Assembly: GCA_964016885.1 (NCBI GenBank)
Contig: OZ024740.1
Location: forward strand, 117,862,001 to 117,926,000
Source of the DNA: Eledone cirrhosa
Taxonomy: Eukaryota
Length of the DNA: 64,000 nt
Reading direction: 5' to 3'
Numbering within the stretch: the first letter of the stretch is position 1; the number at the start of each line of letters is the position of its first letter. Below the pieces are notes generated by a model. It searched no databases. It was not told the DNA's origin and saw only the letters and a program-made list of their open reading frames with translations. Below, one piece after another: positions 5,119 to 63,831 of the stretch. The position numbers and the translations under genes were made by a program.

Positions 5119-5544
5119 GGGAAGAAGACGCACATGGTGGATAGAAGGTCGTGAAATCGCTCCCGTAAGTTTTGAATTTTTAACATATTTAAATCAATTG
5201 TGAAATAACAATTCTTAGTACAAATGATACATAAAACATCCGGCTTGAGTCCCAAAAAATTTCGGATCCATAATATATTGTTATATCGCTCAAATATTCA
5301 ATTTTCTATTATACATTTTATACTCAAAAATAGAAAATGGTTATAAATGCAAGAAAACCCCCTCTGTCTACACTATATAGAACAGCCAAATAACAGCAAT
5401 TTCACCAACGTCAGAAAATAGATACACCACCTATCCCATCATCCCTCTGTGTACACTAAACACAACAGCCAGATAACGGCAATTTCACCACCACCACCAC
5501 CACCAATCTCAGCATAATAATAATTATTACTCTTATTATTGCCT

Positions 5545-6420
5545 CAAGTTTTAGTTTTAACAAAATGTTTAATTCCAATATTAAATAAATATGTCAACAC
5601 ATACGCGACTAACGATAATTTCATTAAAGATAATTTCACTAAAGATAATTTCACCGCCACTACCACGATGAAAACTCTGGTCAAGTCGACTCAAATTTCT
5701 ACTCCAACTTCAACACCATCACTACAGTAATACGACCACATCACCACCACCACTGCCTCATTATCGCTACCGCCGCTATTCTCTCCCACTACCTCCTGCT
5801 AGTTGGTGCTAGAACAGCACCGCCACCACCACCACCACCACCACCACTGCCTCATTATCACTACCGCAGCTATTCTCTCCCGCTGCCTCCTGCTACATTG
5901 TAGAATTCCCACTAAAAAAGGAAGGCATCAAAATATATAAATAGACTGAATTGATGACCCGGTCAGAATAAAAAAAATAAAAAATAAAAATCAAGTTTTA
6001 GTTTTAACAAAATATTTAATTCCAATATTAAATAAATATGTCAACACATATACGCGACTAACGATAATTTCCCTAAAGATAATTTCACCACAAACACCAC
6101 CACCACTACCACGATGAAAACTCTGGTCAAGTCGACTCAAATTTCTACTCCAACTTCAACAGCATCACTACAGTAATACGACCACATCACCACCACCACT
6201 GCCTCATTATCGCTACCGCCGCTATTCTCTCCCACTACCTCCTGCTAGTTGCTGCTAGCACAGCACCGCCACGACCACCACCACCACTGCCTCATTATCA
6301 CTACCGCCGCTATTCTCTCCCGCTAGCCCCTGCTACATTGCAGAACTCTCACTAAAAGAGGAAGGCATCAAAATATATAAATAGACTGACTTGATGACCC
6401 GGTCAAATAAAAAAAAAAAA
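5545..6420. repeat. Diverged two-copy tandem duplication, unit ~445 bp, with (CAC)n tracts and internal sub-repeats
   Basis: caagttttagttttaacaaaat...ttgatgacccggtca occurs at ~5545-5990 and ~5992-6420. Confidence 0.85.
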
Positions 6421-6619
6421 TCAAAATCAAAGCAGCACAGCAACAACGAAAAACGTAAAGAAAATAAGAATGAAGAGAAAAACAAACAGACGGACAGAGA
6501 AGGGAAGGGGAAAACTAAGTCAGATATTCAAACACTACATTACAATGAAACTTATGCTTATTCATTTTTGGGTATTTTTCTGCCTGTTTGTTTGTTTGTT
6601 TATTTGTGTTCGTCTGCAG

Positions 6620-9600
6620 CGTGATAATGCCACACAAAAGTCACGTGGAGTGACGAAACCACCGGAGATGATGAATTCACCGGTGGTTATGTAACCATAC
6701 ATTCGCCAATCCTCGATAAGAGTGTTTAAATGCCGAACCTAAACAGTTCGAATAATGGTGAAATGGAGACTAGAATGTCATGTGACAGACGCTCACCCAA
6801 CAGGTGCTCCCTGGCTCAGCAGCAGGGACCTGGCTGTCAACCAAATACTGCTGGTGTCGGAGGAAGAAGAAGAAGGAAAGGGACCAGAACCAACTGGACG
6901 AAAGAATTGAATAGAACTGTTATGCAATGTTACCTGAAGAGTAACCCCAAGGAGAAAGGCTATAGGAAACAGATGCATAACATCTGGAACGAGATTGGTC
7001 TATTTAAATTAGATGAACAAAAATTGGCCGGGCAGGCTCGGGTAATAAGAACTAATGGGTGGATAAGCGAGCTGGAACTGGAGGAACTGAGCAGAGAGAT
7101 TAGCTTGGAGATGGAGAGTGGAGTATGCCTGGCAAACGAGCCAGTGGGAAATGAAGGTGAAGAGGTCGAGAGAACGGAGGAACCACCCGAAGCAGACAAT
7201 GATCTGAATGCTGAGATAAATAGTACCTGGAACAGAGATACGGCCACTGAGGAGATGAGTGCTGACGGGCTAGGACAAGATTTGGTTGATATCCTAAACT
7301 TAGTGGTAGATGAATTGAACAATGATAGTGGGAGACCTATGAACCTAAGATTTGTAGACAGGAAAAAGTTAACAGAAACAACAGCTAAGGTAAACAAAGT
7401 CATCCCATACCTTGAGGCGAGGAGCCTTCACCAGTGCAACAATATCCTCAAAGCAACAGCAAATACAGTGTGGAAACTACTTGGTATAAAAGCGAGAGGA
7501 AACAACAGACAAGAAAGAGCAGAGCCTTGGTGGAAGAAACGACTGTGTGGTCAAATCAGGAAAATGAGAAATGACATTGGAAAGCTTGAGTCCCTACTGA
7601 ATGGGACACTAAAAAACATAGACACTAAAAATAGACAGGAAATAAAGTACAAAACTAGGAAGAAAAAGCTAAATATTATCATAGAGGAACTGCAGCAACG
7701 CATTGTAGCAAATAGTGAAAAAATCAGGCGATACGAGAACAGAGCCAGTCAGTATAGACAGAACCGCATGTTCGACAACAACCAGAAGATGCTGTTTGGA
7801 CAGCTTGAAGAGAAAGAAAGAGGCAACGAGTTGATCCCTGAGGCGGAACAAATTAAACATTCTGGAGAGGAATATGGAAGCAGGATGTTGAACCTAATGA
7901 CCAGGCAGTGTGGATTGAGACAGTACAGAAGGAGATCAGTGAACAGGCACACCAACAAACTGATTTGAGTATCACAGTTGAAACTCTTAAGGGGCAGGCC
8001 AAAATACTAACCAACTGGAAATCACCAGGCCCAGATGGTGTGCAGGGGTATTGGATTAAAAATATAACATCCCTCCACCCGAAACTGACAACCATGTTCA
8101 ATGACTGCTTGATGTCAGGTGAGGTACCAGAGTGGTTGACAAAAGGTACCACAGTTCTGATAATGAAAGACCGAATCAAGGGTAATGATGTTACCAACTA
8201 TAGACCTATCACATGTCTGTCCGTAATGTGGAAACTGTTGACAAGCATTATGTCTGAGGAAATCTACCATCACCTCCACACAAACAACTTGTTAGCGGAC
8301 GAACAGAAAGGATGCCGAAAGAAGTCACGTGGTACAAAGGACCAGTTACTTATTGATAAGATGGTAATGAGGAATTGCAAGAGGAGACACACTGGTCTTG
8401 CCATGGGATGGATAGACTACAAAAAGGCATTTGACATGGTGCCTCATTCTTGGATCACCAAAAGCCTGGAGATCTTCAAGGTGGCAGATAACATCAGACA
8501 GTTGTTGGGCAAAAGTATGAAGTCCTGGGAAACAGAGTTTAGATCAACTGGCGAATCCTTGGGAAGCGTGAAGATCAAGAGAGGTATCTTCCAGGGAGAT
8601 AGTCTGTCCCCTCTGTTGTTTGTCCTTACCCTGATGCCCCTGACCAGTGTACTGCGAAAAGTGTGTGTAGGATACAGGTTGGGAAAGGGAGGGCTTACCA
8701 TTAATCACCTCCTCTTCATGGACGATCTTAAGCTCTTCGGGAAGAGTGAGAAGGAGTTGGATGTGCTTGTTGACACTGTCCGTATTTTCAGCAATGATAT
8801 ATGTATGCAATTTGGTATTAGTAAGTGTGGAGTCATTGTGATGAGGAGGGGTAAGTTGAGCAGAAGTAACGGAATCCAGATAGCAACAGGTGAGATGATA
8901 AAGGAAATTGACTCTGAGGAAGGATACAAGTATTTGGGCGTTCTGGAGGCTGATGACATCAAGAACAAAAAAATGAAGGAATTGATAAGAACTGAATACC
9001 TTCGGAGAGTAAGGAGCGTATTAAAGTCACATCTGAACAGTAGGAATGCCATAAGTTCAGTAAATTCCCGAGCTGTGTCTATTATTAGGTACAGTGCGGG
9101 AATACTGAGATGGAATGTTGCTGAACAAAAAGAAATGGATAGGAAAACTAGGAAGCTATTGACTATTTACAACATGTTCCACAAGAGGAGTGATGTCGAT
9201 AGACTCTACTTAAGGAGATCTGAGGGTGGAAGAGATCTTATCAGCATAGAGGACTGTGTTCAGATGGAGAAAAACAACCTACTCAAATACGTGACTGATA
9301 GTAAGGAGCCAATGCTCAGAACTGTACTGAAGGAGGGGACAATAGACCAGGGGATGTCCAAGGAGGAAATAACATCAAGGAGAAAGAGCAGCCTTCAGGA
9401 AAAATCCCTTCATAGTACCTTCTTTGAGAAAACTGAATTCAGAGATCCACAGACATGGAACTGGTTGAAAAGAGGAGACCTTAAAAAGGCTACAGAAGGA
9501 ATGTTAATGGCTGCGCAGGAGCAGGCCCTCAAAACGAAGTGGTTGAAACACCATATTTACAAGGAGGAGGCTAGCCCACTGTGCAGGATCTGTGGAGAGA

Positions 9601-10262
9601 CAGAAGAGACTGTGGCTTACATTGTATCCGAGTGTAAACACCTAGCCCAGACTCACTATAAGGGCTGGAAATATGATGTGATGGCCAGGGTGATCCACTG
9701 GCACCTATGCAAAGTAAACAATTTACCACATTCTGAGAAGTGGTATGAGCATAAACCAGAGTTGGTGATAGAAAACGATCAGGTGAAGGTGCTGTGGGAT
9801 TTTAGGATACAGACGGACAAGAAACTGGAACATAATAGACCTGACCTGGTGGTTGTGGACAAAGAAAAAAGATCGTGCCTGATTGTGGATGTGGCCTGCC
9901 CATTCGACACGAGAGTGCAAGAGAAGGAGAGGGAGAAAATTAACCAATACCAGGACTTAAAGTGGGAGGTAAAAAGGATTTGGAACTGCCATGAAGTCAA
10001 AGTGATCCCGATTGTCATAGGCGCACTAAGGACTATCTCCAAAAGTTTCCAGGGATGGTTAAAGAAAATCGGCCTTTTCACGCTTTTTGGAACGCTTCAA
10101 AAGGCATGCTTGCTGGGAACAGCAAGAACACTCCGATACGTCCTGAATATCTGAGGCTGCAGGTAGTGGCTTGATATTCATTCCAACACACTTTCCAGTT
10201 AACTAACATCAATGACTGAGACTCAAGGAGTAATAACAATAATAATAATAATAAGAAGAAGA
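6620..10262 (+). mobile_element. R4/Dong-like copy 3, apparently near full length, one frameshift
   Basis: ORFs 6730-7968 and 7908-10154 join across a 1-nt deletion at ~7853 relative to copy 1. N-terminal RTNWTKELNRTVMQCY region, RT, CCHC, RLE, 3'UTR and (AAT)n tail. 5' boundary uncertain. Confidence 0.92.
6730..10154 (+). pseudogene. Single-ORF RT-RLE polyprotein (~1140 aa) with one frameshift
   Basis: Colinear with the copy 1 protein; frameshift near 7853. Confidence 0.88.
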
Positions 10263-14405: not shown

Positions 14406-14407
14406 TA

Positions 14408-14658
14408 TATCAAAAGTATTAATAATGGAAACTATCTTTATAAAACCATATTTATTTTATTATATATATTTCAAGGGTACCAACATATTTGGTACGCTCT
14501 CATCGGATAAAATATAAAAGTTGTTTTGCAGATAGTGACATATTCAAAACAAGAACTTATCATTTTAAGTTCTGTTTGAAGAGAGCGTACCAACATATAT
14601 ATAATAAAATAAATATGGTTTTATAAAGATAGTTTGAATCTATTAATACTTTTGATAT
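14408..14658. repeat. Fold-back insert with ~60-bp inverted arms
   Basis: atatcaaaagtattaata...aaaccatatttattttattatatatat is mirrored at ~14596-14658; inner ttggtacgctct/agagcgtaccaa. Confidence 0.7.
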
Positions 14659-14791: not shown

Positions 14792-15327
14792 CAATAAATG
14801 TAATCTGAGATTTTCGAATATTAATAATAACATTCGATTCGTTTGGAACTTTGCAAACAAGCCTCAATTTTATAGCCATGTCAGTAGAATGAACCCTTCA
14901 TTCTTACGAAACTTTCTGTTTTATTTGAATTTGGCAAAGCCGGCCAGTTATCGCTCGTATACCGGAAACTGGCTTGCCAGTCTGCTGATATGCAAATCTG
15001 GCTGAACAGTGGATCTGCTAATATGCAGATCTGACTGATCAGCCAGTCTGCTAATATGCAAAACAGGCCGATCAGTCACTGTGTATTTTCGAAACTAGCA
15101 TATATTTTCACTAGCTCTGACAGTTTGGCAGATGAAGAGTGAGCTGTACTGATGAAGGGTGATACCCAGAAACATTAGTGTCTGCAGTTCTGTTTACATG
15201 CCAACACAAGAGCAAGAATGAAGGGTTCATTCTACTGACATGGCTATAAAATTGAGGCTTGTTTGCACAATTACAAACGAATCGAATGTTATTATTAATA
15301 TTCGAAAATCTCAGATTACATTTATTA
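14792..15327. mobile_element. HHR-containing non-autonomous insert with inverted duplication of its 3' part
   Basis: 14792-14905 is the reverse complement of 15213-15327; flanked by TA tracts; contains the HHR at 15141-15190. Confidence 0.75.
15141..15190 (+). ncRNA. Type I hammerhead ribozyme
   Basis: gagctgta-CTGATGA-agggt gat accc a-GAAA-cattagtg-TC-tgcagttc. Stems I, II and III pair; GUC cleavage triplet. Confidence 0.85.
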
Positions 15328-15460: not shown

Positions 15461-15463
<3 letters not shown>

Positions 15464-16015
15464 TAAAACATGTCTATAGAATCACAAGATAAAATATATA
15501 CCATTTCCTCTCCAAATTAGTATAATTAACTATATAAAAAATCGAATAGACCAGGCTATAAGAATGAGGTTTCTATGAAGAAATCTCCAACAAATAACCG
15601 AAACTAGCCCTTCGCGTCGGCCGCAACGGAATATTTATCGAATATTTCGACAGCGTAATTGCCCAGATACAGTCAATTAAACAGAATTAGGTGTAAAATA
15701 AACTAGGAGAAAATAGAATACATTTAAATACCTCTACCATGGTTTCGTCCGCATTTTGAGATTTCCAATAATTATGTAATAATTATGTAACTCGATCATC
15801 GGATTCATCAGGAGATTTGCTCTGATCTAGACACTAAATTTTCCAAAGTGATCGCGCCAAGAATTCATTCAAAATGGCTAAGAATTGTGACGTAGTAGCG
15901 GTCAGGTTGGAAGGGTGTGGTAGTTGCTTACGGCTGGTGGTTTTTTTGCTAGAAAGCACAGCACAATACAGCCAAATTTGTATCTCAACCTAATGGGAGA
16001 TTATTACATATAAAA

Positions 16016-16080: not shown

Positions 16081-16440
16081 CATATACGTGTTTTGCAACG
16101 GGTCACTTTGTGGCTCAATGAAAATTTAATAAATTATATAATCAGAGCTATATATCATAAAAGATGTCTATAGAATCACAAGATAAAATAAATACCATTT
16201 CCTCTCCCAATTAGCATAATTAACTATATAAAAAAATCGAATAGACCAGGCTATAATAATGAGGCTTCTATGAAGAATTCTCCAACAAATAACCGAAACT
16301 AGCCCTTCGCGTCGGCCGCAACGGAATATTTATGGAATATTTCGACAGCGTAATTGCCCAGATACAGTCAATTAAACAGAATTAGGTGTAAAATAAACTA
16401 GGAGAAAATAGAATACATTTAAAAACCTCTACCATGGTTT

Positions 16441-16442
<2 letters not shown>
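15461..16442 (-). mobile_element. Partial tandem of an HHR-bearing non-coding element
   Basis: 15461-15746 is repeated at ~16156-16441; flanked and interrupted by (TA)n. Confidence 0.7.
15726..15818 (-). ncRNA. Type I hammerhead ribozyme with extended stem II
   Basis: Reverse complement: aaatctc-CTGATGA-atccg...cggac-GAAA-ccatgg-TA-gaggtattt; palindromic stem III. Confidence 0.75.
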
Positions 16443-16502
<60 letters not shown>

Positions 16503-17599
16503 AACAAGTATGACCCCGACGGCAGAGCTCAAGCCGTTTCGATGGCTAATTCTAGACTAAGTAAAACTTTTTAGCCTGGTAAATAAATAGCCAAACTTAT
16601 CAAGGGGTACTTCCTTATATGGTAAGACAGTAATTGTCAAGAGGATTGGTTAAAATTTGTTATAAAGACAAATAAATCTATCATTGCATTTGGTGGGAGG
16701 TAGGGGTGGCGAACTTGCCGGTAGAACAAAGAGGGGGTGAAGAAATCCAGTCAGGTGTTGAAAGTGAAATCTATAAAGCAGATTCTATGGATAGTGTATA
16801 AAAAGTCGAAAAATTGTACTGGAGAAAAGGAGGGAGGGAGTTGAAAGAATAGGTAAGTCGAAAGGGAGTAAAATAAAAATAAAATAAAAATAATAATAAA
16901 TATATAAAAAAGTTTTGATAATGAGAAATGAATAAAAAAAACAAAAACAGTAGAGTCTAGAAACACCTGCTATAATTAGTAGGTGGTATTGCTAAGCTAT
17001 AGAAAAGTTTAATAGGTAGAGAATGGGAAAATACTAAATAGGAGATTGTAGTTGGTAGTGAAAAAATTTAAATCAGGCTTTACAGGGATCTAATACAGCT
17101 GCTATAAATAGTTAGTAAAGCGTATTCAGCCAATGCTATCTTACAAATACAGGTTAATAAGTTGAGAAAAAAACTAAAACTAAATAAGAAATTTAGAAAT
17201 TGTAGAATTGGAGTACCAACAAAAAAGAAGAAATTACAGGGGTCTAACACATCTGCTAAAAATAAGGCGTAATCGGCCAATTCTATCTTAAAATTACGGG
17301 GGTGGGAGTACTGAGGCTACAGAGGACCGATGGGCTGCATCAGGGTAGACGAAAGGTGAAAAACAGACAAGGAAGAAGATCTGGGGTGGAAGGAAGTCAT
17401 AGGATGAGATGGGGGGGGGGGGAGAAGGAAACGTAGAGGAAAAGAAAAAAGGTACGTCTACCTATGTAAGCAGGGGTTTCCCCTTCCAAAATCGGCAAGT
17501 GGCGGGTATCAGCCCTTGTCTACCCACCCGGGTCGTTATGGGGTTTGAGGGCGAGGTAAGTCCTACGCAATCAGTGTTTGCATGCGGGTACCAGTTCGT

Positions 17600-17902: not shown

Positions 17903-17949
<47 letters not shown>

Positions 17950-18135
17950 TAATTTAATATATCAACTAACATAAGCGCACAGATGCACGCCTATGCCAGC
18001 AAATACACATGTTATGTCATAGTACCTAGGTGGTTCAATGCAGGAGGATGCAGAACAATAATATAAAAGACGTAAAATAAGAAAATCTTTAAAAAAAATT
18101 TTTTTTTTAATTTTTTACTTACTTACTTAAATTTT

Positions 18136-18217
18136 CACTCCAACTAATTAGTTTCTGCAATGGGATAAAGACAGTTACGTAATCTAACTGTCGAGAATTC
18201 ATTGCGTCATCAGGGAG
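18136..18217 (-). ncRNA. Hammerhead ribozyme (array A, left arm)
   Basis: Reverse complement of the motif at 19154-19235. Confidence 0.75.
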
Positions 18218-19153
18218 TCTATTCTCAGCTAAGTCTCCAGGCAATGCGCGGACACTGGCGGCTCATATAAAAATAATAATAATTCGGTAGATGGAACAGC
18301 TAGCGAGGACTGATTTCCATGCACTGAAATCCTCACTGCCTCTAGTCAAATGGCCGATTCTAAAGAATCAATCACGTGACACAGAGGCTAGTCAGAAGGA
18401 ATGGGATGGTAAGATGACAGACGCCTACTAACACCCCCCAAAAAAATTTTTTTAGAAGTGGTTTTGGCAGGTTTGCTCGACAAATTAGTGATTTGGAGAT
18501 AAATATAGATAATTTAATATATCAACTAACATAAGCGCACAGATGCACGCCTATGCCAGCAAATACACAGGTTATGTCATAGTACCTAGGTGGTTCAATG
18601 CAGGAGGATGCAGAACAATAATATAAAAGACGTAAAATAAGAAAATCTTTTTAAAAAAATGTTTCACTCTGGAGTGAAAATTTAAGTAAGTAAGTAAAAA
18701 TTAAAAAAAAAATTTTTTTTAAAAGATTTTCTTATTTTACGTCTTTTATATTATTGTTCTGCATCCTCCTGCATTGAACCACCTAGGTACTATGACATAA
18801 TCTGTGTATTTGCTGGCATAGGCGTGCATCTGTGCGCTTATGTTAGTTGATATATTAAATTATCTATATTTATCTCCAAATCACTGATTTGTCGAGCAAA
18901 CCTGCCAAAACCACTTCTAAAAAAATTTTTTTTTGGGGTGTTAGTAGGCGTCTGTCATCTTACCATCCCATTCCTTCTGACTAGCATCTGTGTCACGTGA
19001 TTGATTCTTTAGAATCGGCCATTTGACTAGAGGCAGTGAGGATTTCAGTGCATGGAAATCAGTCCTCGCTAGCTGTTCCATCTACCGAATTATTATTATT
19101 TTTATATGAGCCGCCAGTGTCCGCGAATTGCCTGGAGACTTAGCTGAGAATAG

Positions 19154-19235
19154 ACTCCCTGATGACGCAATGAATTCTCGACAGTTAGATTACGTAACTG
19201 TCTTTATCCCATTGCAGAAACTAATTAGTTGGAGT
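19154..19235 (+). ncRNA. Hammerhead ribozyme (array A); second copy at 19710-19791
   Basis: actcc-CTGATGA-cgcaatg...[inner hairpin gacagtta..taactgtc]...cattgca-GAAA-ctaattag-TT-ggagt. Confidence 0.78.
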
Positions 19236-19853
19236 GAAAATTTAAGTAAGTAAAAATTTTTAAAAAAAGTTTTTTTAAAAGATTTTCTTATTTTACGTCT
19301 TTTATATTATTGTTCTGCATCCTCCTGCATTGAACCACCTAGGTACTATGACATAATCTGTGTATTTGCTGGCATAGGCGTGCATCTGTGCGCTTATGTT
19401 AGTTGATATATTAAATTATCTATATTTATCTCCAAATCACTGATTTGTCGAGCAAATCTGCCAAAACCACTTCTAAAAAAATTTTTTTGGGGGGTGTTAG
19501 TAGGCGTCTGTCATCTTACCATCCCATTCCTTCTGACTAGCCTCTGTGTCACGTGATTGATTCTTTAGAATCGGCCATTTGACTAGAGGCAGTGAGGATT
19601 TCAGTGCATGGAATTCAGTCCTCGCTAGCTGTTCCATCTACCGAATTATTATTATTTTTATATGAGCCGCCAGTGTCCGCGAATTGCCTGGAGACTTAGC
19701 TGAGAATAGACTCCCTGATGACGCAATGAATTCTCGATAGTTAGATTACATAACTGTCTTTATCTCATTGCAGAAACTAATTAGTTGGAGTGAAAATTTA
19801 AGTAAGTAAATATAAAAAAAAAAAATTTTTTTAAAAGATTTTCTTATTTTCCG

Positions 19854-19889
<36 letters not shown>

Positions 19890-22140: not shown

Positions 22141-22216
22141 TATATATATATATATGCGTATATATAACAATTACTTATCGCTCTAGATGTCTCTGACAGT
22201 TGCCAGATAAGCATTA

Positions 22217-22266
22217 AACTGTACTAATGAAGGGTAATCCCCCAGAAACATTAGTGTCTGCAGTTC
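22217..22266 (+). ncRNA. Mutated hammerhead (core CTAATGA), same family as 15141-15190
   Basis: aactgta-CTAATGA-agggt..ccca-GAAA-cattagtg-TC-tgcagtt. Confidence 0.6.
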
Positions 22267-22328
22267 TGTTATCATGCGAAAACAAGAGTGAATATTATTA
22301 TTAATATTCAAAAAACTCAGATACCTTT

Positions 22329-23589: not shown

Positions 23590-23872
23590 AAGTAACGATG
23601 ATTCCGTATTGAATGTTTGATGCATTAAAATAAATTATTTTAACGTATTGAGGCTCAGTGTTATTTAATCCAAGTTTATAGAATAGGTTGATTCTGCTGC
23701 GAGAATTTACAGCGGTTTATTACCCGGAAGTATGTGTGTAATTAAGGGGAGTTAATGCGTAAGGGGATGTAACTAGTCGAATCTCATAACTAGTTATGAG
23801 ATTCGACTAGTTACCTCCCCTTAATAATTTATTTTAATGCATCAAACATTCAATACGGAATCATCGTTACTT
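23590..23872. repeat. Fold-back structure with 50-bp outer arms and a 64-bp near-perfect palindrome
   Basis: 23590-23640 mirrors 23823-23872; taaggggatgtaactagtcgaatctcataac|tagttatgagattcgactagttacctcccctta at 23760-23823. Confidence 0.85.
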
Positions 23873-23990: not shown

Positions 23991-23992
<2 letters not shown>

Positions 23993-24190
23993 AAAAGAAT
24001 AAGGACCCCGACGGCTGAGCTCCGGCTGTTTCGACAGCTAGATCCGAACAGTTCGAATCTAGTTGCTGAAACAGCCGGAGCTCAGCCGCCGAGGTCCTGA
24101 CTCATTTCCTATTACCCACTCTACTACCATAAGTATCGAGTTCTCTGGTGCGTTATGGTCCACCTGCTTCCTAACCACACTTTCTGTCAT
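23991..24190 (+). mobile_element. Palindromic mini-element (family F) carrying an HHR 3' half, between (TA)n
   Basis: 23991-24110 is an imperfect palindrome; GAAA-cagccggagctcagccg..gaggtcct. The tail is shared with 37701-37890, 39326-39487 and 60213-60283. Confidence 0.75.
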
Positions 24191-24209
24191 ATATATATAT
24201 ATATATATC

Positions 24210-25545
24210 TTTCTCAGGACCTTTCTACACTGGTTAGCTAATTTCCCTCCAGGGGTAGCGTCCACAAACATGACACTCTGGTATATCTGCTTGTCGTACC
24301 TTGAGGTGGGTTTCCCTATCTTATGTCTAGACCTATCTAAGCTATTCCATGATTTGCTGCTGTATAATGGGCAAATTCCTTTCATGTCCAGTTCTATGAG
24401 GGTCTTATACTTCTCCGTGGCTCCTTCGTATACTCTGATTCTGTCTTTTTGGTTGTAGCCAGAGAACTGCATGCGGTTGATGAAGTGTTGGATGTGTCTT
24501 TCCATTTCTGTTGGGTCGCACATGCGGGACACGTTCTTCATCACTCGTACCAAACTGAGAAAGACCCACTTAAAGATTAAGGTGGTAGAAAAGCCAGGAA
24601 CCACCATCAAATCCCTGATCAGCAAAACCTACCCTTTTAAGAAAACCCACTGTACTAATAGGAAATGTATCATATATAAAGTAAACCCCCGGATAAACTG
24701 TAAAACTAGAAACGTAGTCTATAGCATAAGATGTACAGAGGGTACTTGCAGAAACATGACAACAACATACATAGGCGAGACAGCTCGTAGCATAGGTGAA
24801 AGGATAGACCAACACTGGGGGGAACTAAAAGGACGAACAAACGGTTCAGTACTATACGAACATGCCAGACAACAACACAACGGTAACATAGACAACATAG
24901 ATGTTAGAATAATATCTAAACATAGAAATGACCCAGCAGATAGGCAAATCAGAGAGGCCAGCGAAATAGAACTTAAAAGGCCAAGGCTAAAAAGAAAAAA
25001 TGAATGGAATAACAACAACACCCAAACAAACAACACTGACCTAAGAGAAGTATAAATAAATAAATAAATAAATAAATAAACAAGCACAATAACAACACAC
25101 ACATATAAACACACACTAGTAAACAAAGATAGAATACATTAAACAATACACAGTTACCCAAACAAGAACACACATCAAACAAAACACTATACACACGCAA
25201 ACGCATACGCAGAGAAGACAAAAAAACAACAAATAAATAAATAAATAAACAGACTAAATAAAGATGGGGTAGCATACAATGCAACGGGAGGAAACATAAT
25301 AGCACCACTGGCGATGTTACAGATATGCAACGAAAGAACTTTGATTGACTATATATATGTGTTTGTGTCTATATTGTATCTGTATTTTTGACCGTTGGTC
25401 AGTCAATGGTAACATTGAGGACCGAATAAATTAATTTAACCGATATAAAAGATACAGAAGCGAAAATCAACCAAACAGTGAGTGTGTTCTGTTATTAATT
25501 CTGGTAATATTATTACACAAATATGACCCTCCCCAACTATAACAA
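24210..25545 (+). mobile_element. 5'-truncated, 5'-inverted copy of the PLE at 34.6-37.5 kb
   Basis: 24210-24553 is the reverse complement of ~36112-36456; 24555-25545 matches 36448-37437. GIY-YIG motif VVYSIRC..YIGETAR. (TA)n on both sides. Confidence 0.92.
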
Positions 25546-31566: not shown

Positions 31567-31573
<7 letters not shown>

Positions 31574-31884
31574 ACCAAAGAAGCCTTCAATACATCAAAA
31601 GTCTTTATTAGCCAACAATGTTTCGTCCTATTAAGGACTCATCAGGGCAATTAAAGCTATAAGAAGCACTATCGGCCAATACAAGCCAAAAACTCAATTG
31701 CCCTTATGAGTCCTTAATAGGACGAAACATTGTTGGCTAATAAAGACTTTTGATGTATTGAAGGCTTCTTTGGTTTATTTTCATAATTTTTCGGCTCTGT
31801 TTAATTACATTGAGCTATACTTTTACTGTCATTTCTATAATACGAAGAGGGTGTTTAACTCCAACACACTCTAGTATTTTAATT

Positions 31885-34699: not shown

Positions 34700-36948
34700 A
34701 CAAATAGTAGACAGGTATACTAAGAGACAGAGCAGACCAGAGGCCCAACAACTTGGGAGAAAACCTGTAGAAGGCTTGGTTAGCCTCAAGCAGCGCATAA
34801 GGGATGGTGAGGTAGTATGTCTACCCATGGATAAGTCTGGTAGGATGTCAATAGATAGCATGCCGAACTACATCAAGGCTATGCAACCCACATCACCAAC
34901 ACCAGCGAAATTGCACAACAAACACACGATGGGAGAGAGAAAATCCTCAACGCTCACATGATGATGTGGACTGACATCCTAAAGCCAAGCAGACGCACTG
35001 CCAACAACTTCCAGGCGTCTAACAATGGCATACCACCATTCTATGGGCTCCGCAAAGACCACAAGACAGTCGACGACCCGACAACAGGACCACCAACAAG
35101 ACCCATATGCGGAGCTAATATAGCTAGTAACTACAGGATCTCCTACTTCCTCTCAATGGTTATACGCCCCATAATCAAGATGTCCCCAGATGTATGTGAC
35201 AGTACAGAGGACCTCCTCAGCAGAATCAGTGAGTGCAACAAAAACAGGAACCTATCCAACTGCATAATAGGCAGCATGGATGTGGTGTCACTGTACCCAT
35301 CCATTAACATTGATTTTGCTGTGAAAAGATGTGTGGAGATGATCATTGAGAGTGAGGTGGAGTTCTGCGACGTCGACACAGACGAACTGGGCCTCCTACT
35401 TAGACTTACCTACGACACTGACTACCTAGACAGCCATGACCTTAGACGTTTCTGCCCTAGTAGACCTATAAGAGGTAGACCCCCCACCATAACCTCAATG
35501 GCAAAAAAGACTCCCATGGGAAGGTGGATTGGGTGGACCAAAGCTATACGGACCCCCAAAAACAATGATCAGGTAAGAAAAATGGTCGCACATGCAATAG
35601 GGGCTAGTATCAAAACTACCCTAAAGGGCCACATATTTAAGTTCAACGAGAAGTCTACACCCAAAATGAGGGAGCAGCCATCGGCGTCAGCATAGCTGGT
35701 GATGTTGCCAACCTTTTCATGGTATGGTGGGAAAGGAGACTTGAAGTTCTGCTTAATGAGAGCTCCATAGACCTCATCATGTACTCTCGTTATGTAGACG
35801 ATATCAATATAGTTATAAGAACACCCCCACTAGAGAACACTAACAAGTTTGATTTAGAACGTAGCACGATGGAAAGCATCCAGCAGATAGCTAATTCCAT
35901 ACACCAGAGTATAACTGTAACTATTGACTTCCCTTCCAAACACCCTAACAATAGACTACCTGTATTAGACACAGAACTCTGGATTAACACTATAGACGAG
36001 AGAGCCCAAATTCTCCACTCACACTATGCTAAACCCATGGCCTCCAAATACCTGATACTCAAAAACTCAGCAATGTCCAGTAGTGCTAAGTTTAATATTC
36101 TGATCGCAGATTTGGTACGAGTGATGAAGAATGTGTCCCGCATGTGCGACCCAACAGAAATGGAAAGACACATCCAACACTTCATCAACCGCATGCAGTT
36201 CTCTGGCCACAACCAAAGAGACAGAGTCAGAGTATACGAAGGAGCCATGGAGAAGTATAAGACCCTCATAGAACTGGACATGAAAGGAAATTGCCCATTA
36301 TACAGGAGCAAATCATGGAATATCTTAGATAGGGCTAGACATAAGATAGGGAAAGCCACCTCATGGTACGACAACCAGAGATACCAGAGTGTCATGTTTG
36401 TGGACGCTACCCCTGGAGGGAAATTAGCTAATCAGTGTAGAAAGGCCCTGAGAAAGACCCACTTAAAAATAAAGGTGGTAGAAAAGCCAGGAACCACCAT
36501 CAAATCCCTGATCAGCAAAACCTACCCTTTTAAGAAAACCCACTGTACCAATAGGAAATGTATCATATGTAAGGTGAACCCCCGGATAAACTGTAAAACT
36601 AGAAACGTAGTCTATAGCATAAGATGTACAGAGGGTACTTGCAGAAACATGACAACAACATACATAGGTGAGACAGCTCGTAGCATAGGTGAAAGGATAG
36701 ACCAACACTGGGGGGAACTAAAAGGACGAAAAAACGGGTCAGTACTATACGAACATGCTATACAACAACATGACGGTAACATAGACAACATAGAAATTAG
36801 AATAATATCTAAACATAGAAATGACCCAGCAGATAGGCAAATCAGAGAGGCCAGTGAAATAGAAATTAGAAGACCAAGACTAAACAGAAAGAATGAATGG
36901 AATATCAACAACACCCAAACAAACAACACTGACCTAAGAGAAGTATAA
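34700..36948 (+). pseudogene. PLE reverse transcriptase / GIY-YIG endonuclease ORF with ~2 frameshifts
   Basis: ORFs 34776-34961, 34958-35695 and 35719-36948. Motif B (QNEGAAIGVSIAGDVANLFM) is restored by a frameshift near 35655. Confidence 0.88.
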
Positions 36949-37184: not shown

Positions 37185-37230
37185 AGCACCACTGACGATG
37201 TTGCAGATGTGCAACGAAAGATTTATGATA
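37185..37230 (+). ncRNA. Hammerhead-like core in the PLE 3' region (atypical stems I/III)
   Basis: gcacca-CTGACGA-tgttgca gatg tgcaac-GAAA-gattta. Copies at ~25302-25345 (CTGGCGA) and ~57122-57160 (-). Confidence 0.5.
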
Positions 37231-39671: not shown

Positions 39672-42600
39672 ATAAAAACAAATAACGAAACGAAATTAAA
39701 TTTCGTTTCGTTTGTAACTCACTTTTGTATGACTGACGCTTAAACAATTAAGTTAAAAATGTACATCCACATATGTATACTGAAATACTAGTATGCATAT
39801 GAATACACACACGTGTACATATGTAGATGTACCGAGTTTTTCACTGGACACTTTACTGTGAGTGTCCAGCTATTCTGTATGTAAACACACAGACAAACCG
39901 GTTTTTAGAGTTATACTGGTTTTCGAGGAAACACCTTTCCTCTATTCTCCAGAAAGCCAGACAAGGAATATTGGACTAGTTTCGATGTTGTTACATCTCA
40001 TCAGCAATATTTACCTATCTTCCGGCCTTTCTAGAGAATCGTAAAAGCACATATCGTTATATGCTTTTTCTATGAAAATTAGTAGTGGGCAGACTAATTT
40101 GCATAGAGCGTGAGTACGTACCGGTTCAGCGGAGACGATAAAAACAAATAACGAAACGAAATTAAATTTCGTTTCGTTTGTAACTCACTTTTGTATGACT
40201 GACGCTTAAACAATTAAGTTAAAAATGTACATCCACATATGTATACTGAAATACTAGTATGCATATGAATACACAGACGTGTACATATGTAGATGTACCG
40301 AGTTTTTCACTGGACACTTTACTGTGAGTGTCCAGCTATTCTGTATGTAAACACACAGACAAACCGGTTTTTAGAGTCATACTGGTTTTCGAGGAAACAC
40401 CTTTCCTCTATTCTCCAGAAAGCCAGACAAGGAATATTGGACTAGTTTCGATGTTGTTACATCTCATCAGCAATATTTACCTATCTTCCGGCCTTTCTAG
40501 AGAATCGTAAAAGCACATATCGTTATATGCTTTTTCTATGAAAATTAGTAGTGGGCAGACTAATTTGCATAGAGCGTGAGTACGTACCGGTTCAGCGGAG
40601 AGGATAAAAACAAATAACGAAACGAAATTAAATTTCGTTTCGTTTGTAACTCACTTTTGTATGACTGACGCTTAAACAATTAAGTTAAAAATGTACATCC
40701 ACATATGTATACTGAAATACTAGTATGCATATGAATACACACACGTGTACATATGTAGATGTACCGAGTTTTTCACTGGACACTTTACTGTGAGTGTCCA
40801 GTTATTCTGTATGTAAACACACAGACAAACCGGTTTTTAGAGTCATACTGGTTTTCGAGGAAACACCTTTCCTCTATTATCCAGAAAGCCAGACAAGGAA
40901 TATTGGACTAGTTTCGATGTTGTTACATCTCATCAGCAATATTTACCTATCTTCCGGCCTTTCTAGAGAATCGTAAAAGCACATATCGTTATATGCTTTT
41001 TCTATGAAAATTAGTAGTGGGCAGACTAATTTGCATAGAGCGTGAGTACGTACCGGTTCAGCGGAGACGATAAAAACAAATAACGAAACGAAATTAAATT
41101 TCGTTTCGTTTGTAACTCACTTTTGTATGACTGACGCTTAAACAATTAAGTTAAAAATGTACATCCACATATGTATACTGAAATACTAGTATGCATATGA
41201 ATACACACACGTGTACATATGTAGATGTACCGAGTTTTTCACTGGACACTTTACTGTGAGTGTCCAGCTATTCTGTATGTAAACACACAGACAAACCGGT
41301 TTTTAGAGTCATACTGGTTTTCGAGGAAACACCTTTCCTCTATTCTCCAGAAAGCCAGACAAGGAATATTGGACTAGTTTCGATGTTGTTACATCTCATC
41401 AGCAATATTTACCTATCTTCCGGCCTTTCTAGAGAATCGTAAAAGCACATATCGTTATATGCTTTTTCTATGAAAATTAGTAGTGGGCAGACTAATTTGC
41501 ATAGAGCGTGAGTACGTACCGGTTCAGCGGAGACGATAAAAACAAATAACGAAACGAAATTAAATTTCGTTTCGTTTGTAAATCACTTTTGTATGACTGA
41601 CGCTTAAACAATTAAGTTAAAAATGTACATCCACATATGTATACTGAAATACTAGTATGCATATGAATACACACACGTGTACATATGTAGATGTACCGAG
41701 TTTTTCACTGGACACTTTACTGTGAGTGTCCAGCTATTCTGTATGTAAACACACAGACAAACCGGTTTTTAGAGTCATACTGGTTTTCGAGGAAACACCT
41801 CTCCTCTATTCTCCAGAAAGCCAGACAAGGAATATTGGACTAGTTTCGATGTTGTTACATCTCATCAGCAATATTTACCTATCTTCCGGCCTTTCTAGAG
41901 AATCGTAAAAGCACATATCGTTATATGCTTTTTCTATGAAAATTAGTAGTGGGCAGACTAATTTGCATAGAGCGTGAGTACGTACCGGTTCAGCGGAGAC
42001 GATAAAAACAAATAACGAAACGAAATTAAATTTCGTTTCGTTTGTAACTCACTTTTGTATGACTGACGCTTAAACAATTAAGTTAAAAATGTACATCCAC
42101 ATATGTATACTGAAATACTAGTATGCATATGAATACACACACGTGTACATATGTAGATGTACCGAGTTTTTCACTGGACACTTTACTGTGAGTGTCCAGC
42201 TATTCTGTATGTAAACACACAGACAAACCGGTTTTTAGAGTCATACTGGTTTTCGAGGAAACACCTTTCCTCTATTCTCCAGAAAGCCAGACAAGGAATA
42301 TTGGACTAGTTTCGATGTTGTTACATCTCATCAGCAATATTTACCTATCTTCCGGCCTTTCTAGAGAATCGTAAAAGCACATATCGTTATATGCTTTTTC
42401 TATGAAAATTAGTAGTGGGCAGACTAATTTGCATAGAGCGTGAGTACGTACCGGTTCAGCGGAGACGATAAAAACAAATAACGAAACGAAATTAAATTTC
42501 GTTTCGTTTGTAACTCACTTTTGTATGACTGACGCTTAAACAATTAAGTTAAAAATGTACATCCACATATGTATACTGAAATACTAGTATGCATATGAAT

Positions 42601-45600
42601 ACACACACGTGTACATATGTAGATGTACCGAGTTTTTCACTGGACACTTTACTGTGAGTGTCCAGCTATTCTGTATGTAAACACACAGACAAACCGGTTT
42701 TTAGAGTCATACTGGTTTTCGAGGAAACACCTTTCCTCTATTCTCCAGAAAGCCAGACAAGGAATATTGGACTAGTTTCGATGTTGTTACATCTCATCAG
42801 CAATATTTACCTATCTTCCGGCCTTTCTAGAGAATCGTAAAAGCACATATCGTTATATGCTTTTTCTATGAAAATTAGTAGTGGGCAGACTAATTTGCAT
42901 AGAGCGTGAGTACGTACCGGTTCAGCGGAGACGATAAAAACAAATAACGAAACGAAATTAAATTTCGTTTCGTTTGTAACTCACTTTTGTATGACTGACG
43001 CTTAAACAATTAAGTTAAAAATGTACATCCACATATGTATACTGAAATACTAGTATGCATATGAATACACACACGTGTACATATGTAGATGTACCGAGTT
43101 TTTCACTGGACACTTTACTGTGAGTGTCCAGCTATTCTGTATGTAAACACACAGACAAACCGGTTTTTAGAGTCATACTGGTTTTCGAGGAAACACCTTT
43201 CCTCTATTCTCCAGAAAGCCAGACAAGGAATATTGGACTAGTTTCGATGTTGTTACATCTCATCAGCAATATTTACCTATCTTCCGGCCTTTCTAGAGAA
43301 TCGTAAAAGCACATATCGTTATATGCTTTTTCTATGAAAATTAGTAGTGGGCAGACTAATTTGCATAGAGCGTGAGTACGTACCGGTTCAGCGGAGACGA
43401 TAAAAACAAATAACGAAACGAAATTAAATTTCGTTTCGTTTGTAACTCACTTTTGTATGACTGACGCTTAAACAATTAAGTTAAAAATGTACATCCACAT
43501 ATGTATACTGAAATACTAGTATGCATATGAATACACACACGTGTACATATGTAGATGTACCGAGTTTTTCACTGGACACTTTACTGTGAGTGTCCAGCTA
43601 TTCTGTATGTAAACACACAGATAAACCGGTTTTTAGAGTCATACTGGTTTTCGAGGAAACACCTTTCCTCTATTCTCCAGAAAGCCAGACAAGGAATATT
43701 GGACTAGTTTCGATGTTGTTACATCTCATCAGCAATATTTACCTATCTTCCGGCCTTTCTAGAGAATCGTAAAAGCACATATCGTTATATGCTTTTTCTA
43801 TGAAAATTAGTAGTGGGCAGACTAATTTGCATCGAGCGTGAGTACGTACCGGTTCAGCGGAGACGATAAAAACAAATAACGAAACGAAATTAAATTTCGT
43901 TTCGTTTGTAACTCACTTTTGTATGACTGACGCTTAAACAATTAAGTTAAAAATGTACATCCACATATGTATACTGAAATACTAGTATGCATATGAATAC
44001 ACACACGTGTACATATGTAGATGTACCGAGTTTTTCACTGGACACTTTACTGTGAGTGTCCAGCTATTCTGTATGTAAACACACAGACAAACCGGTTTTT
44101 AGAGTCATACTGGTTTTCGAGGAAACACCTTTCCTCTATTCTCCAGAAAGCCAGACAAGGAATATTGGACTAGTTTCGATGTTGTTACATCTCATCAGCA
44201 ATATTTACCTATCTTCCGGCCTTTCTAGAGAATCGTAAAAGCACATATCGTTATATGCTTTTTCTATGAAAATTAGTAGTGGGCAGACTAATTTGCATAG
44301 AGCGTGAGTACGTACCGGTTCAGCGGAGACGATAAAAACAAATAACGAAACGAAATTAAATTTCGTTTCGTTTGTAACTCACTTTTGTATGACTGACGCT
44401 TAAACAATTAAGTTAAAAATGTACATCCACATATGTATACTGAAATACTAGTATGCATATGAATACACACACGTGTACATATGTAGATGTACCGAGTTTT
44501 TCACTGGACACTTTACTGTGAGTGTCCAGCTATTCTGTATGTAAACACACAGACAAACCGGTTTTTAGAGTCATACTGGTTTTCGAGGAAACACCTTTCC
44601 TCTATTCTCCAGAAAGCCAGACAAGGAATATTGGACTAGTTTCGATGTTGTTACATCTCATCAGCAATATTTACCTATCTTCCGGCCTTTCTAGAGAATC
44701 GTAAAAGCACATATCGTTATATGCTTTTTCTATGAAAATTAGTAGTGGGCAGACTAATTTGCATAGAGCGTGAGTACGTACCGGTTCAGCGGAGACGATA
44801 AAAACAAATAACGAAACGAAATTAAATTTCGTTTCGTTTGTAACTCACTTTTGTATGACTGACGCTTAAACAATTAAGTTAAAAATGTACATCCACATAT
44901 GTATACTGAAATACTAGTATGCATATGAATACACACACGTGTACATATGTAGATGTACCGAGTTTTTCACTGGACACTTTACTGTGAGTGTCCAGCTATT
45001 CTGTATGTAAACACACAGACAAACCGGTTTTTAGAGTCATACTGGTTTTCGAGGAAACACCTTTCCTCTATTCTCCAGAAAGCCAGACAAGGAATATTGG
45101 ACTAGTTTCGATGTTGTTACATCTCATCAGCAATATTTACCTATCTTCCGGCCTTTCTAGAGAATCGTAAAAGCACATATCGTTATATGCTTTTTCTATG
45201 AAAATTAGTAGTGGGCAGACTAATTTGCATAGAGCGTGAGTACGTACCGGTTCAGCGGAGACGATAAAAACAAATAACGAAACGAAATTAAATTTCGTTT
45301 CGTTTGTAACTCACTTTTGTATGACTGACGCTTAAACAATTAAGTTAAAAATGTACATCCACATATGTATACTGAAATACTAGTATGCATATGAATACAC
45401 ACACGTGTACATATGTAGATGTACCGAGTTTTTCACTGGACACTTTACTGTGAGTGTCCAGCTATTCTGTATGTAAACACACAGATAAACCGGTTTTTAG
45501 AGTCATACTGGTTTTCGAGGAAACACCTTTCCTCTATTCTCCAGAAAGCCAGACAAGGAATATTGGACTAGTTTCGATGTTGTTACATCTCATCAGCAAT

Positions 45601-48600
45601 ATTTACCTATCTTCCGGCCTTTCTAGAGAATCGTAAAAGCACATATCGTTATATGCTTTTTCTATGAAAATTAGTAGTGGGCAGACTAATTTGCATCGAG
45701 CGTGAGTACGTACCGGTTCAGCGGAGACGATAAAAACAAATAACGAAACGAAATTAAATTTCGTTTCGTTTGTAACTCACTTTTGTATGACTGACGCTTA
45801 AACAATTAAGTTAAAAATGTACATCCACATATGTATACTGAAATACTAGTATGCATATGAATACACACACGTGTACATATGTAGATGTACCGAGTTTTTC
45901 ACTGGACACTTTACTGTGAGTGTCCAGCTATTCTGTATGTAAACACACAGACAAACCGGTTTTTAGAGTCATACTGGTTTTCGAGGAAACACCTTTCCTC
46001 TATTCTCCAGAAAGCCAGACAAGGAATATTGGACTAGTTTCGATGTTGTTACATCTCATCAGCAATATTTACCTATCTTCCGGCCTTTCTAGAGAATCGT
46101 AAAAGCACATATCGTTATATGCTTTTTCTATGAAAATTAGTAGTGGGCAGACTAATTTGCATAGAGCGTGAGTACGTACCGGTTCAGCGGAGACGATAAA
46201 AACAAATAACGAAACGAAATTAAATTTCGTTTCGTTTGTAACTCACTTTTGTATGACTGACGCTTAAACAATTAAGTTAAAAATGTACATCCACATATGT
46301 ATACTGAAATACTAGTATGCATATGAATACACACACGTGTACATATGTAGATGTACCGAGTTTTTCACTGGACACTTTACTGTGAGTGTCCAGCTATTCT
46401 GTATGTAAACACACAGACAAACCGGTTTTTAGAGTCATACTGGTTTTCGAGGAAACACCTTTCCTCTATTCTCCAGAAAGCCAGACAAGGAATATTGGAC
46501 TAGTTTCGATGTTGTTACATCTCATCAGCAATATTTACCTATCTTCCGGCCTTTCTAGAGAATCGTAAAAGCACATATCGTTATATGCTTTTTCTATGAA
46601 AATTAGTAGTGGGCAGACTAATTTGCATAGAGCGTGAGTACGTACCGGTTCAGCGGAGACGATAAAAACAAATAACGAAACGAAATTAAATTTCGTTTCG
46701 TTTGTAACTCACTTTTGTATGACTGACGCTTAAACAATTAAGTTAAAAATGTACATCCACATATGTATACTGAAATACTAGTATGCATATGAATACACAC
46801 ACGTGTACATATGTAGATGTACCGAGTTTTTCACTGGACACTTTACTGTGAGTGTCCAGCTATTCTGTATGTAAACACACAGACAAACCGGTTTTTAGAG
46901 TCATACTGGTTTTCGAGGAAACACCTTTCCTCTACTAGTCCAATATTCCTTGTCTGGCTTTCTAGAGAATAGAGGAAAGGTGTTTCCTCGAAAACCAGTA
47001 TGACTCTAAAAACCGGTTTGTCTGTGTATTTACATACAGAATAGCTGGACACTCTCAGTAAAGTGTCCAGTGAAAAACTCGGTACATCTACATATGTACA
47101 CGTGTGTGTATTCATATGCATACTAGTATTTCAGTATACATATGTGGATGTACATTTTTAACTTAATTGTTTAAGCGTCAGTCATACAAAAGTGAGTTAC
47201 AAACGAAACGAAATTTAATTTCGTTTCGTTATTTGTTTTTATCGTCTCCGCTGAACCGGTACGTACTCACGCTCTATGCAAATTAGTCTGCCCACTACTA
47301 ATTTTCATAGAAAAAGCATATAACGATATGTGCTTTTACGATTCTCTAGAAAGGCCGGAAGATAGGTAAATATTGCTGATGAGATGTAACAACATCGAAA
47401 CTAGTCCAATATTCCTTGTCTGGCTTTCTGGAGAATAGAGGAAAGGTGTTTCCTCGAAAACCAGTATGACTCTAAAAACCGGTTTGTCTGTGTGTTTACA
47501 TACAGAATAGCTGGACACTCACAGTAAAGTGTCCAGTGAAAAACTCGGTACATCTACATATGTACACGTGTGTGTATTCATATGCATACTAGTATTTCAG
47601 TATACATATGTGGATGTACATTTTTAACTTAATTGTTTAAGCGTCAGTCATACAAAAGTGAGTTACAAACGAAACGAAATTTAATTTCGTTTCGTTATTT
47701 GTTTTTATCGTCTCCGCTGAACCGGTACGTACTCACGCTCTATGCAAATTAGTCTGCCCACTACTAATTTTCATAGAAAAAGCATATAACGATATGTGCT
47801 TTTACGATTCTCTAGAAAGGCCGGAAGATAGGTAAATATTGCTGATGAGATGTAACAACATCGAAACTAGTCCAATATTCCTTGTCTGGCTTTCTGGAGA
47901 ATAGAGGAAAGGTGTTTCCTCGAAAACCAGTATGACTCTAAAAACCGGTTTGTCTGTGTGTTTACATACAGAATAGCTGGACACTCACAGTAAAGTGTCC
48001 AGTGAAAAACTCGGTAGATCTACATATGTACACGTGTGTGTATTCATATGCATACTAGTATTTCAGTATACATATGTGGATGTACATTTTTAACTTAATT
48101 GTTTAAGCGTCAGTCATACAAAAGTGAGTTACAAACAAAACGAAATTTAATTTCGTTTCGTTATTTGTTTTTATCGTCTCCGCTGAACCGGTACGTACTC
48201 ACGCTCTATGCAAATTAGTCTGCCCACTACTAATTTTCATAGAAAAAGCATATAACGATATGTGCTTTTACGATTCTCTAGAAAGGCCGGAAGATAGGTA
48301 AATATTGCTGATGAGATGTAACAACATCGAAACTAGTCCAATATTCCTTGTCTGGCTTTCTGGAGAATAGAGGAAAGGTGTTTCCTCGAAAACCAGTATG
48401 ACTCTAAAAACCGGTTTGTCTGTGTGTTTACATACAGAATAGCTGGACACTCACAGTAAAGTGTCCAGTGAAAAACTCGGTACATCTACATATGTACACG
48501 TGTGTGTATTCATATGCATACTAGTATTTCAGTATACATATGTGGATGTACATTTTTAACTTAATTGTTTAAGCGTCAGTCATACAAAAGTGAGTTACAA

Positions 48601-49034
48601 ACGAAACGAAATTTAATTTCGTTTCGTTATTTGTTTTTATCGTCTCCGCTGAACCGGTACGTACTCACGCTCTATGCAAATTAGTCTGCCCATTACTAAT
48701 TTTCATAGAAAAAGCATATAACGATATGTGCTTTTACGATTCTCTAGAAAGGCCGGAAGATAGGTAAATATTGCTGATGAGATGTAACAACATCGAAACT
48801 AGTCCAATATTCCTTGTCTGGCTTTCTGGAGAATAGAGGAAAGGTGTTTCCTCGAAAACCAGTATGACTCTAAAAACCGGTTTGTCTGTGTGTTTACATA
48901 CAGAATAGCTGGACACTCACAGTAAAGTGTCCAGTGAAAAACTCGGTACATCTACATATGTACACGTGTGTGTATTCATATGCATACTAGTATTTCAGTA
49001 TACATATGTGGATGTACATTTTTAACTTAATTGT
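39672..49034. repeat. Retrozyme-like array B: 466-bp unit, ~15.6 copies then ~4.5 inverted copies, inversion at ~46934
   Basis: Period 466 (ORF track 39862, 40328, ...). Copies nearly identical, one HHR per unit; both ends in (TA)n. Confidence 0.97.
47369..47413 (+). ncRNA. Minimal type I hammerhead ribozyme of array B (repeats every 466 bp; minus strand in the left arm, first at ~39967-40011)
   Basis: aatattg-CTGATGA-gatgt aaca acatc-GAAA-ctag-TC-caatatt. Perfect 7-bp stem I, 5-bp stem II, palindromic stem III, GUC site. Confidence 0.92.
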
Positions 49035-49334
49035 ATATATATATATATATATATATCAAAGGCATGTATTGAGTTAGAAATTCAAAATAGTCTCATTACC
49101 ATGAATTAGCTCTAGGAAAGAGGTTTTTCCGAACCGTATAGTATGACTGATCAAAACAGAAAAACGAACACAGACATATACATATATGTGTTCAAATCGT
49201 AAGGGACCAGAATCGCTAAGGTGAAAAGAATACTAACTACAGTCAATAGAGATTGCTAGACTCAATTTAAGAATAAATCAAGAAAAGTAAATACAAACCA
49301 GAATTAATTGTGGTAACTACCGATCGGTAGTTAC

Positions 49335-49450: not shown

Positions 49451-52961
<3,511 letters not shown>

Positions 52962-63630: not shown

Positions 63631-63633
<3 letters not shown>

Positions 63634-63831
63634 TTAATATAGATGAGATTCTACAGGACTAGAACTGTTTCATTCTTTAGAAATCATCAGGATTCTCAGT
63701 GATTCCTGATGATTTCTAAAGAATGAAACAGCTCTAGTCCTGTAGAATCTCATCTATATTAAAACCTTTATACTCTGCAATGTATTGAGTACCTTACTTA
63801 CTGTGGTTACCTCCGATTCAACACGGAATAA

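Follow-up and report, generated by a model that had tools for sequence, protein, structure and literature searches.

A head-to-head hammerhead repeat array with a Penelope-type insertion footprint, joined at the predicted self-cleavage site

Animal non-LTR retrozymes have been described by Cervera & de la Pena 2020 (PMC7229834) and in a 2026 preprint by Li, Clavereau & Pollet (10.64898/2026.07.22.740005). Retrozyme RNAs occur in linear, circular and multimeric forms (PMC7229834), and the elements were proposed to be copied from circles by a Penelope reverse transcriptase (RT), the case for Penelope-driven spread being argued from co-occurrence and phylogeny (PMC7229834; 10.64898/2026.07.22.740005). 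Head-to-head arrays or junctions are not discussed in the main texts of these papers: a count of the words "inverted", "opposite" and "orientation" in PMC7229834 gave 0, and in the available part of the preprint "inverted" appears only in a reference and "junction" 0 times.

Penelope-like elements are marked by inverted 5′-truncated copies, partial tandems and (TA)n targets, and the function of the hammerhead in them was stated to be unclear (Craig et al. 2021, PMC8557442). Arkhipova et al. 2013 interpreted the palindromes found at inverted junctions as self-priming (PMC3846280). For an anole element, the Penelope protein was shown to nick both strands and to extend them, with internal initiation at AT-rich DNA (Frangieh et al. 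2024, PMC11167929). The hammerhead of the anole element is protein-assisted and dispensable in vitro, with hammerhead mutants inserting normally; no RNA-seq reads began or ended at the cut, and uncut RNA was the dominant substrate in vitro (PMC11167929). In the R2 retrotransposon, the site at which an HDV-like ribozyme cuts is correlated with the kind of 5′ junction (Eickbush et al. 2013, PMC3774820). For Penelope-like insertions, the available text of PMC8557442, PMC3846280 and PMC11167929 describes no junction at the hammerhead cut, and no report of a retrozyme inversion junction at the cut was found in the literature searched.

In this study, a head-to-head array of a hammerhead-bearing repeat (array A, formed by repeat family A) was analysed in a window of 64 kb, the whole stretch of DNA under analysis, which is microsatellite-rich animal DNA and has non-LTR retrotransposon ORFs at 1–10 kb. 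Several tandem and partly broken non-LTR retrotransposon copies with an RVT_1 match were seen at 1282–10154, and their C-terminal region is presumably endonuclease-like. As listed in Table 1, array A consists of an antisense arm (L1 and L2) and a sense arm (R1, R2 and R3), placed head-to-head between two (TA)n tracts. The full units R1, R2 and L1 showed 6–8 differences over 506 compared positions. The two outer ends are internal to the monomer, at positions of about +77 and +197 counted from the predicted cut, where AT-rich sequence merges with the (TA)n. Neither is the 3′ end expected from the ribozyme, and the two are about 120 nt apart in the monomer, a distance looked at with regard to the 30–40 bp tail that Penelope-like insertions may have at one end.

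Array A is non-coding, no ORF of at least 100 aa overlapping it. An ORF with RT and GIY-YIG, the mark used for an autonomous Penelope-like element, was absent from the array, and no tRNA was found in it. Rfam gave only sub-threshold miRNA-hairpin matches on array A, which were caused by the inversion, and did not score the hammerhead; at the gathering threshold, no hammerhead score was obtained for arrays B and C (see below) either.

Table 1. Positions of array A, its parts and the elements compared with it in the window
Feature	Positions	Strand	Remark
Left (TA)n target tract	17903..17948		
L2, partial monomer, +1 to about +195-199, into (TA)n at internal AT-rich site	17945..18141	-	
L1, antisense-arm monomer, 529 nt, intact predicted hammerhead, head without about 32 nt	18142..18670	-	
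L1 hammerhead	core 18213-18207	-	motif scan; predicted cut 18142/18141
Head-to-head junction, 8-bp inverted repeat	18662..18679		2-nt centre 18670-18671 = predicted cut
R1, full monomer, 560 nt	18671..19230	+	predicted cut to predicted cut
Type I hammerhead motif across R1/R2 boundary	19137..19251	+	predicted cut 19230/19231
8-bp hairpin extending stem II	19180..19202	+	double-sided changes in another organism's contig
R2, full monomer, 556 nt, GC 0.365, second hammerhead	19231..19786	+	predicted cut 19786/19787
R3, partial monomer, +1 to about +77, into (TA)n at internal AT-rich site	19787..19863	+	
Right (TA)n target tract	19859..19889		
Control E, head-to-head hammerhead pair	31567..31781		centre about 60 nt upstream of predicted cut
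Frameshifted Penelope-like RT + GIY-YIG element	34859..36948	+	motifs, homologue domains
Array B, 466-nt hammerhead monomer, GUC	39672..49037		head-to-head junction at 46934
Array C, 310-nt hammerhead monomer, GUA	49505..52775		blunt junction 50387/50388
Control D, short head-to-head hammerhead pair	63631..63765		centre 46 nt upstream of predicted cut

A motif scan detected the hammerhead in 3 of the 3 full units (R1, R2 and L1), with the predicted cuts given in Table 1. Across the R1/R2 boundary, the type I motif comprises the core CTGATGA at 19159–19165, GAAA at 19217–19220, stem III CTAATTAG and a GUU triplet, so that the initial annotation, which had predicted cleavage after GUU at this boundary, was borne out in this respect. 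Its description of stem II as long and branched held for the length only: the branched form was rejected, since positions 19166–19216 (about 50 nt) fold as one unbranched helix made up of 6 bp, a 7 × 7 internal loop and an 8-bp hairpin. Stem I has 5 bp and, by way of internal loops, reaches about +21; stem II begins with a C.A mismatch (19166/19216), which the initial annotation does not mention; and stem III (19221–19228) is palindromic, which allows pairing between two copies (8 bp, −5.6 kcal/mol). In the fold, which is a 2D model only, the active hammerhead lay 3.8 kcal/mol above the minimum and stem III had a pair probability of about 0.1. Hammerheads with U17 cleave slower than those with C or A at that position.

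The hairpin extending stem II was changed on both sides, in a compensatory manner, at 19180/19202 and 19182/19200 in one contig of a second organism, compared without a shuffle control. One contig of a third organism, also without a shuffle control, covered 19144–19243 and had 1 difference, placed at 19187; the GUU and the C.A are therefore kept there. Natural hammerheads include some with a mismatch where stem II begins and some with a weak palindromic stem III (PMC3088659). Solo hammerhead-bearing repeats were also seen in the window, at 15125–15212 and 22191–22288 and at 15461–15830 and 16155–16441, where cleavage is predicted after 15182 (+) and 15735 (−); in the copy at 22.2 kb, the core is mutated.

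At the centre of array A, the sense arm matched the monomer from 18671 (+1), in agreement with the initial annotation, which had placed its start exactly at the cut. That start is −1 or +1 and not uniquely +1, because T18670 also matches U17 (−1). The antisense arm, said to converge on nearly the same point, does so: it ends in TTTCACTC (18662–18669), the reverse complement of monomer +2 to +9, which gives a start at +2/+1. An 8-nt head match of this kind arose in 0 of 1089 monomer-derived 11-mers and in 8 of 29989 background 11-mers, and is not due to chance. With the arm matches at −1/+1 and +2/+1, both arms begin within 1–2 nt of the predicted scissile bond, and this coincidence is real.

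Past its +2 to +9 head, the antisense arm resumes at about +42, a gap left out of the initial annotation, and the absence of about 32 nt is explained by a single deletion between two AAAATTT repeats (+7 and +39), with 2 mismatches. The centre reads CT/GG instead of CC/GG and is thus one C-to-T off a perfect join of two cut ends; a C-to-T change at the new CpG, an added base and a −1/+2 join fit equally, and any of them could have given the CT.

Other head-to-head junctions in the window served as controls. Arrays B and C are young head-to-head hammerhead arrays between (TA)n tracts, and their 3′ ends also are internal to the unit and run into (TA)n. At the junction of array B, the sense arm starts at −7/−6 and the antisense arm at +30, with an overlap of 1 nt; in array C, the arms start at −55 and −124, with an overlap of 0 nt. 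Variable sites across both arms numbered 15 in B and 1 in C (near-homogeneous). Two variants of array B recur four of its monomers apart (L2/L6 and L3/L7 of that array), which suggests a block duplication of 1864 nt or an assembly effect, and its first sense monomer has three private changes within the first 115 nt. Controls D and E are mini palindromic insertions with a hammerhead in each arm; E has a predicted GUU triplet and a mutated core in the right arm.

Short head-to-head insertions of a further type (F) were seen beside (TA)n at 37701–37810, 23991–24109, 39321–39409 (F3) and 16501–16558. They have only the 3′ half of a hammerhead-like motif (GAAA, stem III and mostly GTC), with no core visible, and an extension of about 80 nt on one side. 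The centres of F1 and F2 are 38 and 40 nt upstream of the predicted cuts, which are tentative for the F elements. Inverted-repeat structures in which no hammerhead was recognised were present at 14407–14658, 23760–23823 and 53457–53634.

Seven head-to-head junctions were mapped in the window, with F3 omitted as not cleanly mappable and with D, E and the F elements picked up because they hold hammerhead pieces. Only that of array A (1/7) is at the cut. Comparison with the junctions of other copies, proposed with the initial annotation as a refuting test, thus went partly against it: the footprint of a ribozyme-made 5′ end is found at array A, but the other mapped junctions are off the cut, and on the evidence in hand a junction exactly at the cut is not a general rule. 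If starts were uniformly distributed, the probability that one arm or more among three arrays falls within 1 nt of the cut would be P = 0.042, and that of one arm at most 10 nt from the cut in 2 of 3 arrays P = 0.006, the latter with a distance chosen post hoc. The chance of the hit in A was about 0.9% per junction, and about 0.07 with symmetric junctions and 8 tries.

Reads or contigs from 4 of the 18 listed sequencing runs were compared with one family-A monomer. Family A is multi-copy and diverse: 1698 contigs in mixed identity bands were obtained from run X1, their depth not being a copy number, as well as 7426 reads from run X16 and 13 and 33 contigs from two other organisms. Pattern scans gave 0 matches in metagenome contigs and 0 in viral contigs; a single pattern-scan match (L001), with only 31 nt matching, was taken as chance. 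In one X1 contig (depth 6.7), 19275 is linked to 19225 through nine intervening letters, the reverse complement of +15 to +23; the antisense letters that come next would be TTA, identical to 19225–19227. This contig suggests a second family-A head-to-head junction, of presumed orientation, in which the sense arm would start at −6 to −3 and the antisense arm would start at +15 to +12, with a microhomology of 3 nt; it was the only other family-A candidate among the loose ends listed. In the raw-read run X16, reads end at AATT, which occurs at 19223, 19239 and 19255; the depth at the cut is therefore about 10–25, and the run is nearly blind there. The one opposite-strand joint of this run, at 19116/19138 (3 reads, 2 starts), spans an AATT site and was not counted, since it could be a chimera from library preparation.

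Among the 40 of 180 variants listed, which were polarised by the majority letter of the runs, R1 and R2 have two derived bases in common that are absent from L1 (monomer 127 and 452), and R1 has one in common with L1 (monomer 384). Such mixed sharing suggests later conversion between units. It therefore does not separate two-sided priming from fold-back, nor does it show two independent templates, and its use as an arbiter between twin priming and fold-back was dropped.

The frameshifted element with RT and GIY-YIG in Table 1, which we take to be Penelope-like from the motifs recognised alongside the Pfam domains of homologues, had its best homologue in Octopus vulgaris (63% identity), which makes a cephalopod host probable. 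Some other matches carry PF00078 and PF01541, and Pfam named 0 of the 2 ORF pieces themselves. The ORF shows that this enzyme class is present in this genome; its element had no sequence similarity to array A. A minimal hammerhead-like motif lies at 37192, downstream of the ORF, in an element span of 34859–37490, and truncated and inverted Penelope-like fragments were seen at 24208–25545 and 56908–57431.

We take array A to be a single insertion of a high-copy non-coding hammerhead repeat that was probably copied in trans by a Penelope-like RT-endonuclease. Penelope-type copying is supported because inverted 5′-truncated copies and (TA)n targets are Penelope hallmarks (PMC8557442), and by the presence of a Penelope-like ORF in the window. 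The enzyme would nick both strands of the (TA)n tract and prime cDNA on each side at internal AT-rich sites, which is supported by the same activities of the anole protein (PMC11167929). It would then read through the uncut hammerheads of a linear multimer, or jump the nick, a multimeric template being supported by the forms known for retrozyme RNAs (PMC7229834). Finally, it would run off at the ribozyme-made 5′ end, and the two cDNA ends would be joined almost bluntly. The left head would have lost its 32 nt between the two 7-nt repeats, either while being copied or later. With its GUU, the C.A where stem II begins and a short palindromic stem III, the ribozyme would be weak, which would favour multimers that are cut only in part. 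Ends made by the ribozyme would count among several stopping points and would not be the rule.

For this locus, run-off of a Penelope RT at a 5′ end cut by the ribozyme has, in our judgement, about an even chance. Run-off is supported by the junction of A at −1/+1 and +2/+1 with its 8-nt head match, rare by chance; by the two arrays of three with an arm at most 10 nt from the cut (the post hoc P = 0.006) together with the X1 candidate at −6 to −3; and, as regards a junction shaped by a ribozyme, by the correlation in R2 (PMC3774820). It is weakened because only 1 of the 7 mapped junctions is at the cut, with P = 0.042 or about 0.07, and because the starts in B and in the X1 candidate lie a few nt before the cut, in sequence for which a cleaved end alone provides no template. 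It is weakened also because anole hammerhead mutants insert normally and no reads end at the cut (PMC11167929), and because in the 2D model the active fold is above the minimum and stem III improbable. A ribozyme-made template end is taken to be more probable than stalling near the ribozyme or other causes.

Stalling, the main alternative, which is possible though doubtful, would mean that RT on an uncut circular or multimeric template stalled or switched template in or just past the hammerhead, array A being one draw from a cluster. At each of the 7 mapped junctions, one arm or both start upstream of the predicted cut at a distance of 1 to about 60 nt (D, E and F having been selected by hammerhead pieces), and the match of T18670 to U17 fits this pattern. 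The arms of B, with 15.6 and 4.5 nearly identical copies, and those of C, with 2.8 and 7.7, are as rolling-circle copying predicts, and uncut RNA as the dominant substrate in vitro (PMC11167929) points the same way. However, stalling does not predict that both arms of A end within 2 nt of the scissile bond, and in the predicted fold the RT would meet strong barriers in stem I, at about +21, and in stem II, at about −15, rather than at +1.

Fold-back or self-priming at a palindrome is improbable. Here the second arm would copy the first, and the 8-bp central repeat would be a snap-back remnant whose position is unrelated to cleavage, in line with the interpretation of such palindromes by Arkhipova et al. 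(PMC3846280). Although D, F1 and F2 are near-symmetric and the two arms of C differ at a single site, the joins in B and C overlap by 1 and 0 nt, and the one derived base common to R1 and L1 stands against the two common to R1 and R2 and absent from L1 among the variants listed. The centre at the cut (about 0.9% per junction) would be left to explain. Pairing of two cDNA ends via the stem III palindrome was also considered and rejected, as it predicts a symmetric junction at −6/−7, which is absent in A and B.

It is very unlikely that the junction was reshaped once inserted, a long palindrome undergoing conversion and deletion at its centre, and came to lie at the cut by chance: the 6–8 differences in 506 positions between units, the deletion and 2 mismatches of the left head and the mosaic of shared variants would suit such reshaping, but random trimming would reach this site in <1% of junctions. 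As for an assembly fold-back artefact, it is unlikely because the arms end in different unique flanks, and on these flanks and the divergence of the arms it was discarded.

Beyond this locus, we propose only tentatively that Penelope-type reverse transcription stops where the hammerhead has cut, the RT primed on both (TA)n strands running off or jumping the nick; one junction at the cut is, on its own, suggestive only. If true, head-to-head retrozyme junctions would be a genomic record of in vivo cleavage, in which junctions at the cut and short arrays come from weak ribozymes, and long arrays with scattered junctions from circles, and the hammerhead would gain a role in the Penelope/retrozyme cycle. 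Because three different hammerhead arrays in one window carry the full Penelope insertion footprint and one of them is joined at the predicted cut, this role is testable by counting junction positions across the genome of the high-copy family A.

Judged from its sequence, array A is a retrozyme-type repeat with a Penelope-type insertion footprint and an unusually long monomer and stem II, its self-cleavage being predicted. Family A resembles the retrozymes, as these are described in the available texts (PMC7229834; 10.64898/2026.07.22.740005), in being a non-coding, low-GC (<45–50%) tandem repeat with a type I hammerhead motif per full unit, a short palindromic helix III and a mismatch where helix II begins (U.U in axolotl HHR_Amex2; C.A here), and in co-existing with Penelope-like elements. 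It differs in its monomer of 556–560 nt, above the reported range of 150–450 bp, in its stem II of about 50 nt and in its GUU triplet. With endonuclease-bearing Penelope-like insertions, as far as the cited texts describe them, array A shares partial tandems, an inverted 5′-truncated copy adjoining the 5′ end, a palindrome at the inverted junction, a (TA)n target and internal initiation; unlike Penelope-like elements, it is without an ORF and has no sequence link to the Penelope-like element of the window. R2 has another class of ribozyme and of RT, is site-specific in rDNA and is without an inverted arm, but it is like the proposal made here for array A in that a ribozyme-made 5′ end of the RNA shapes the 5′ junction of the element (PMC3774820).
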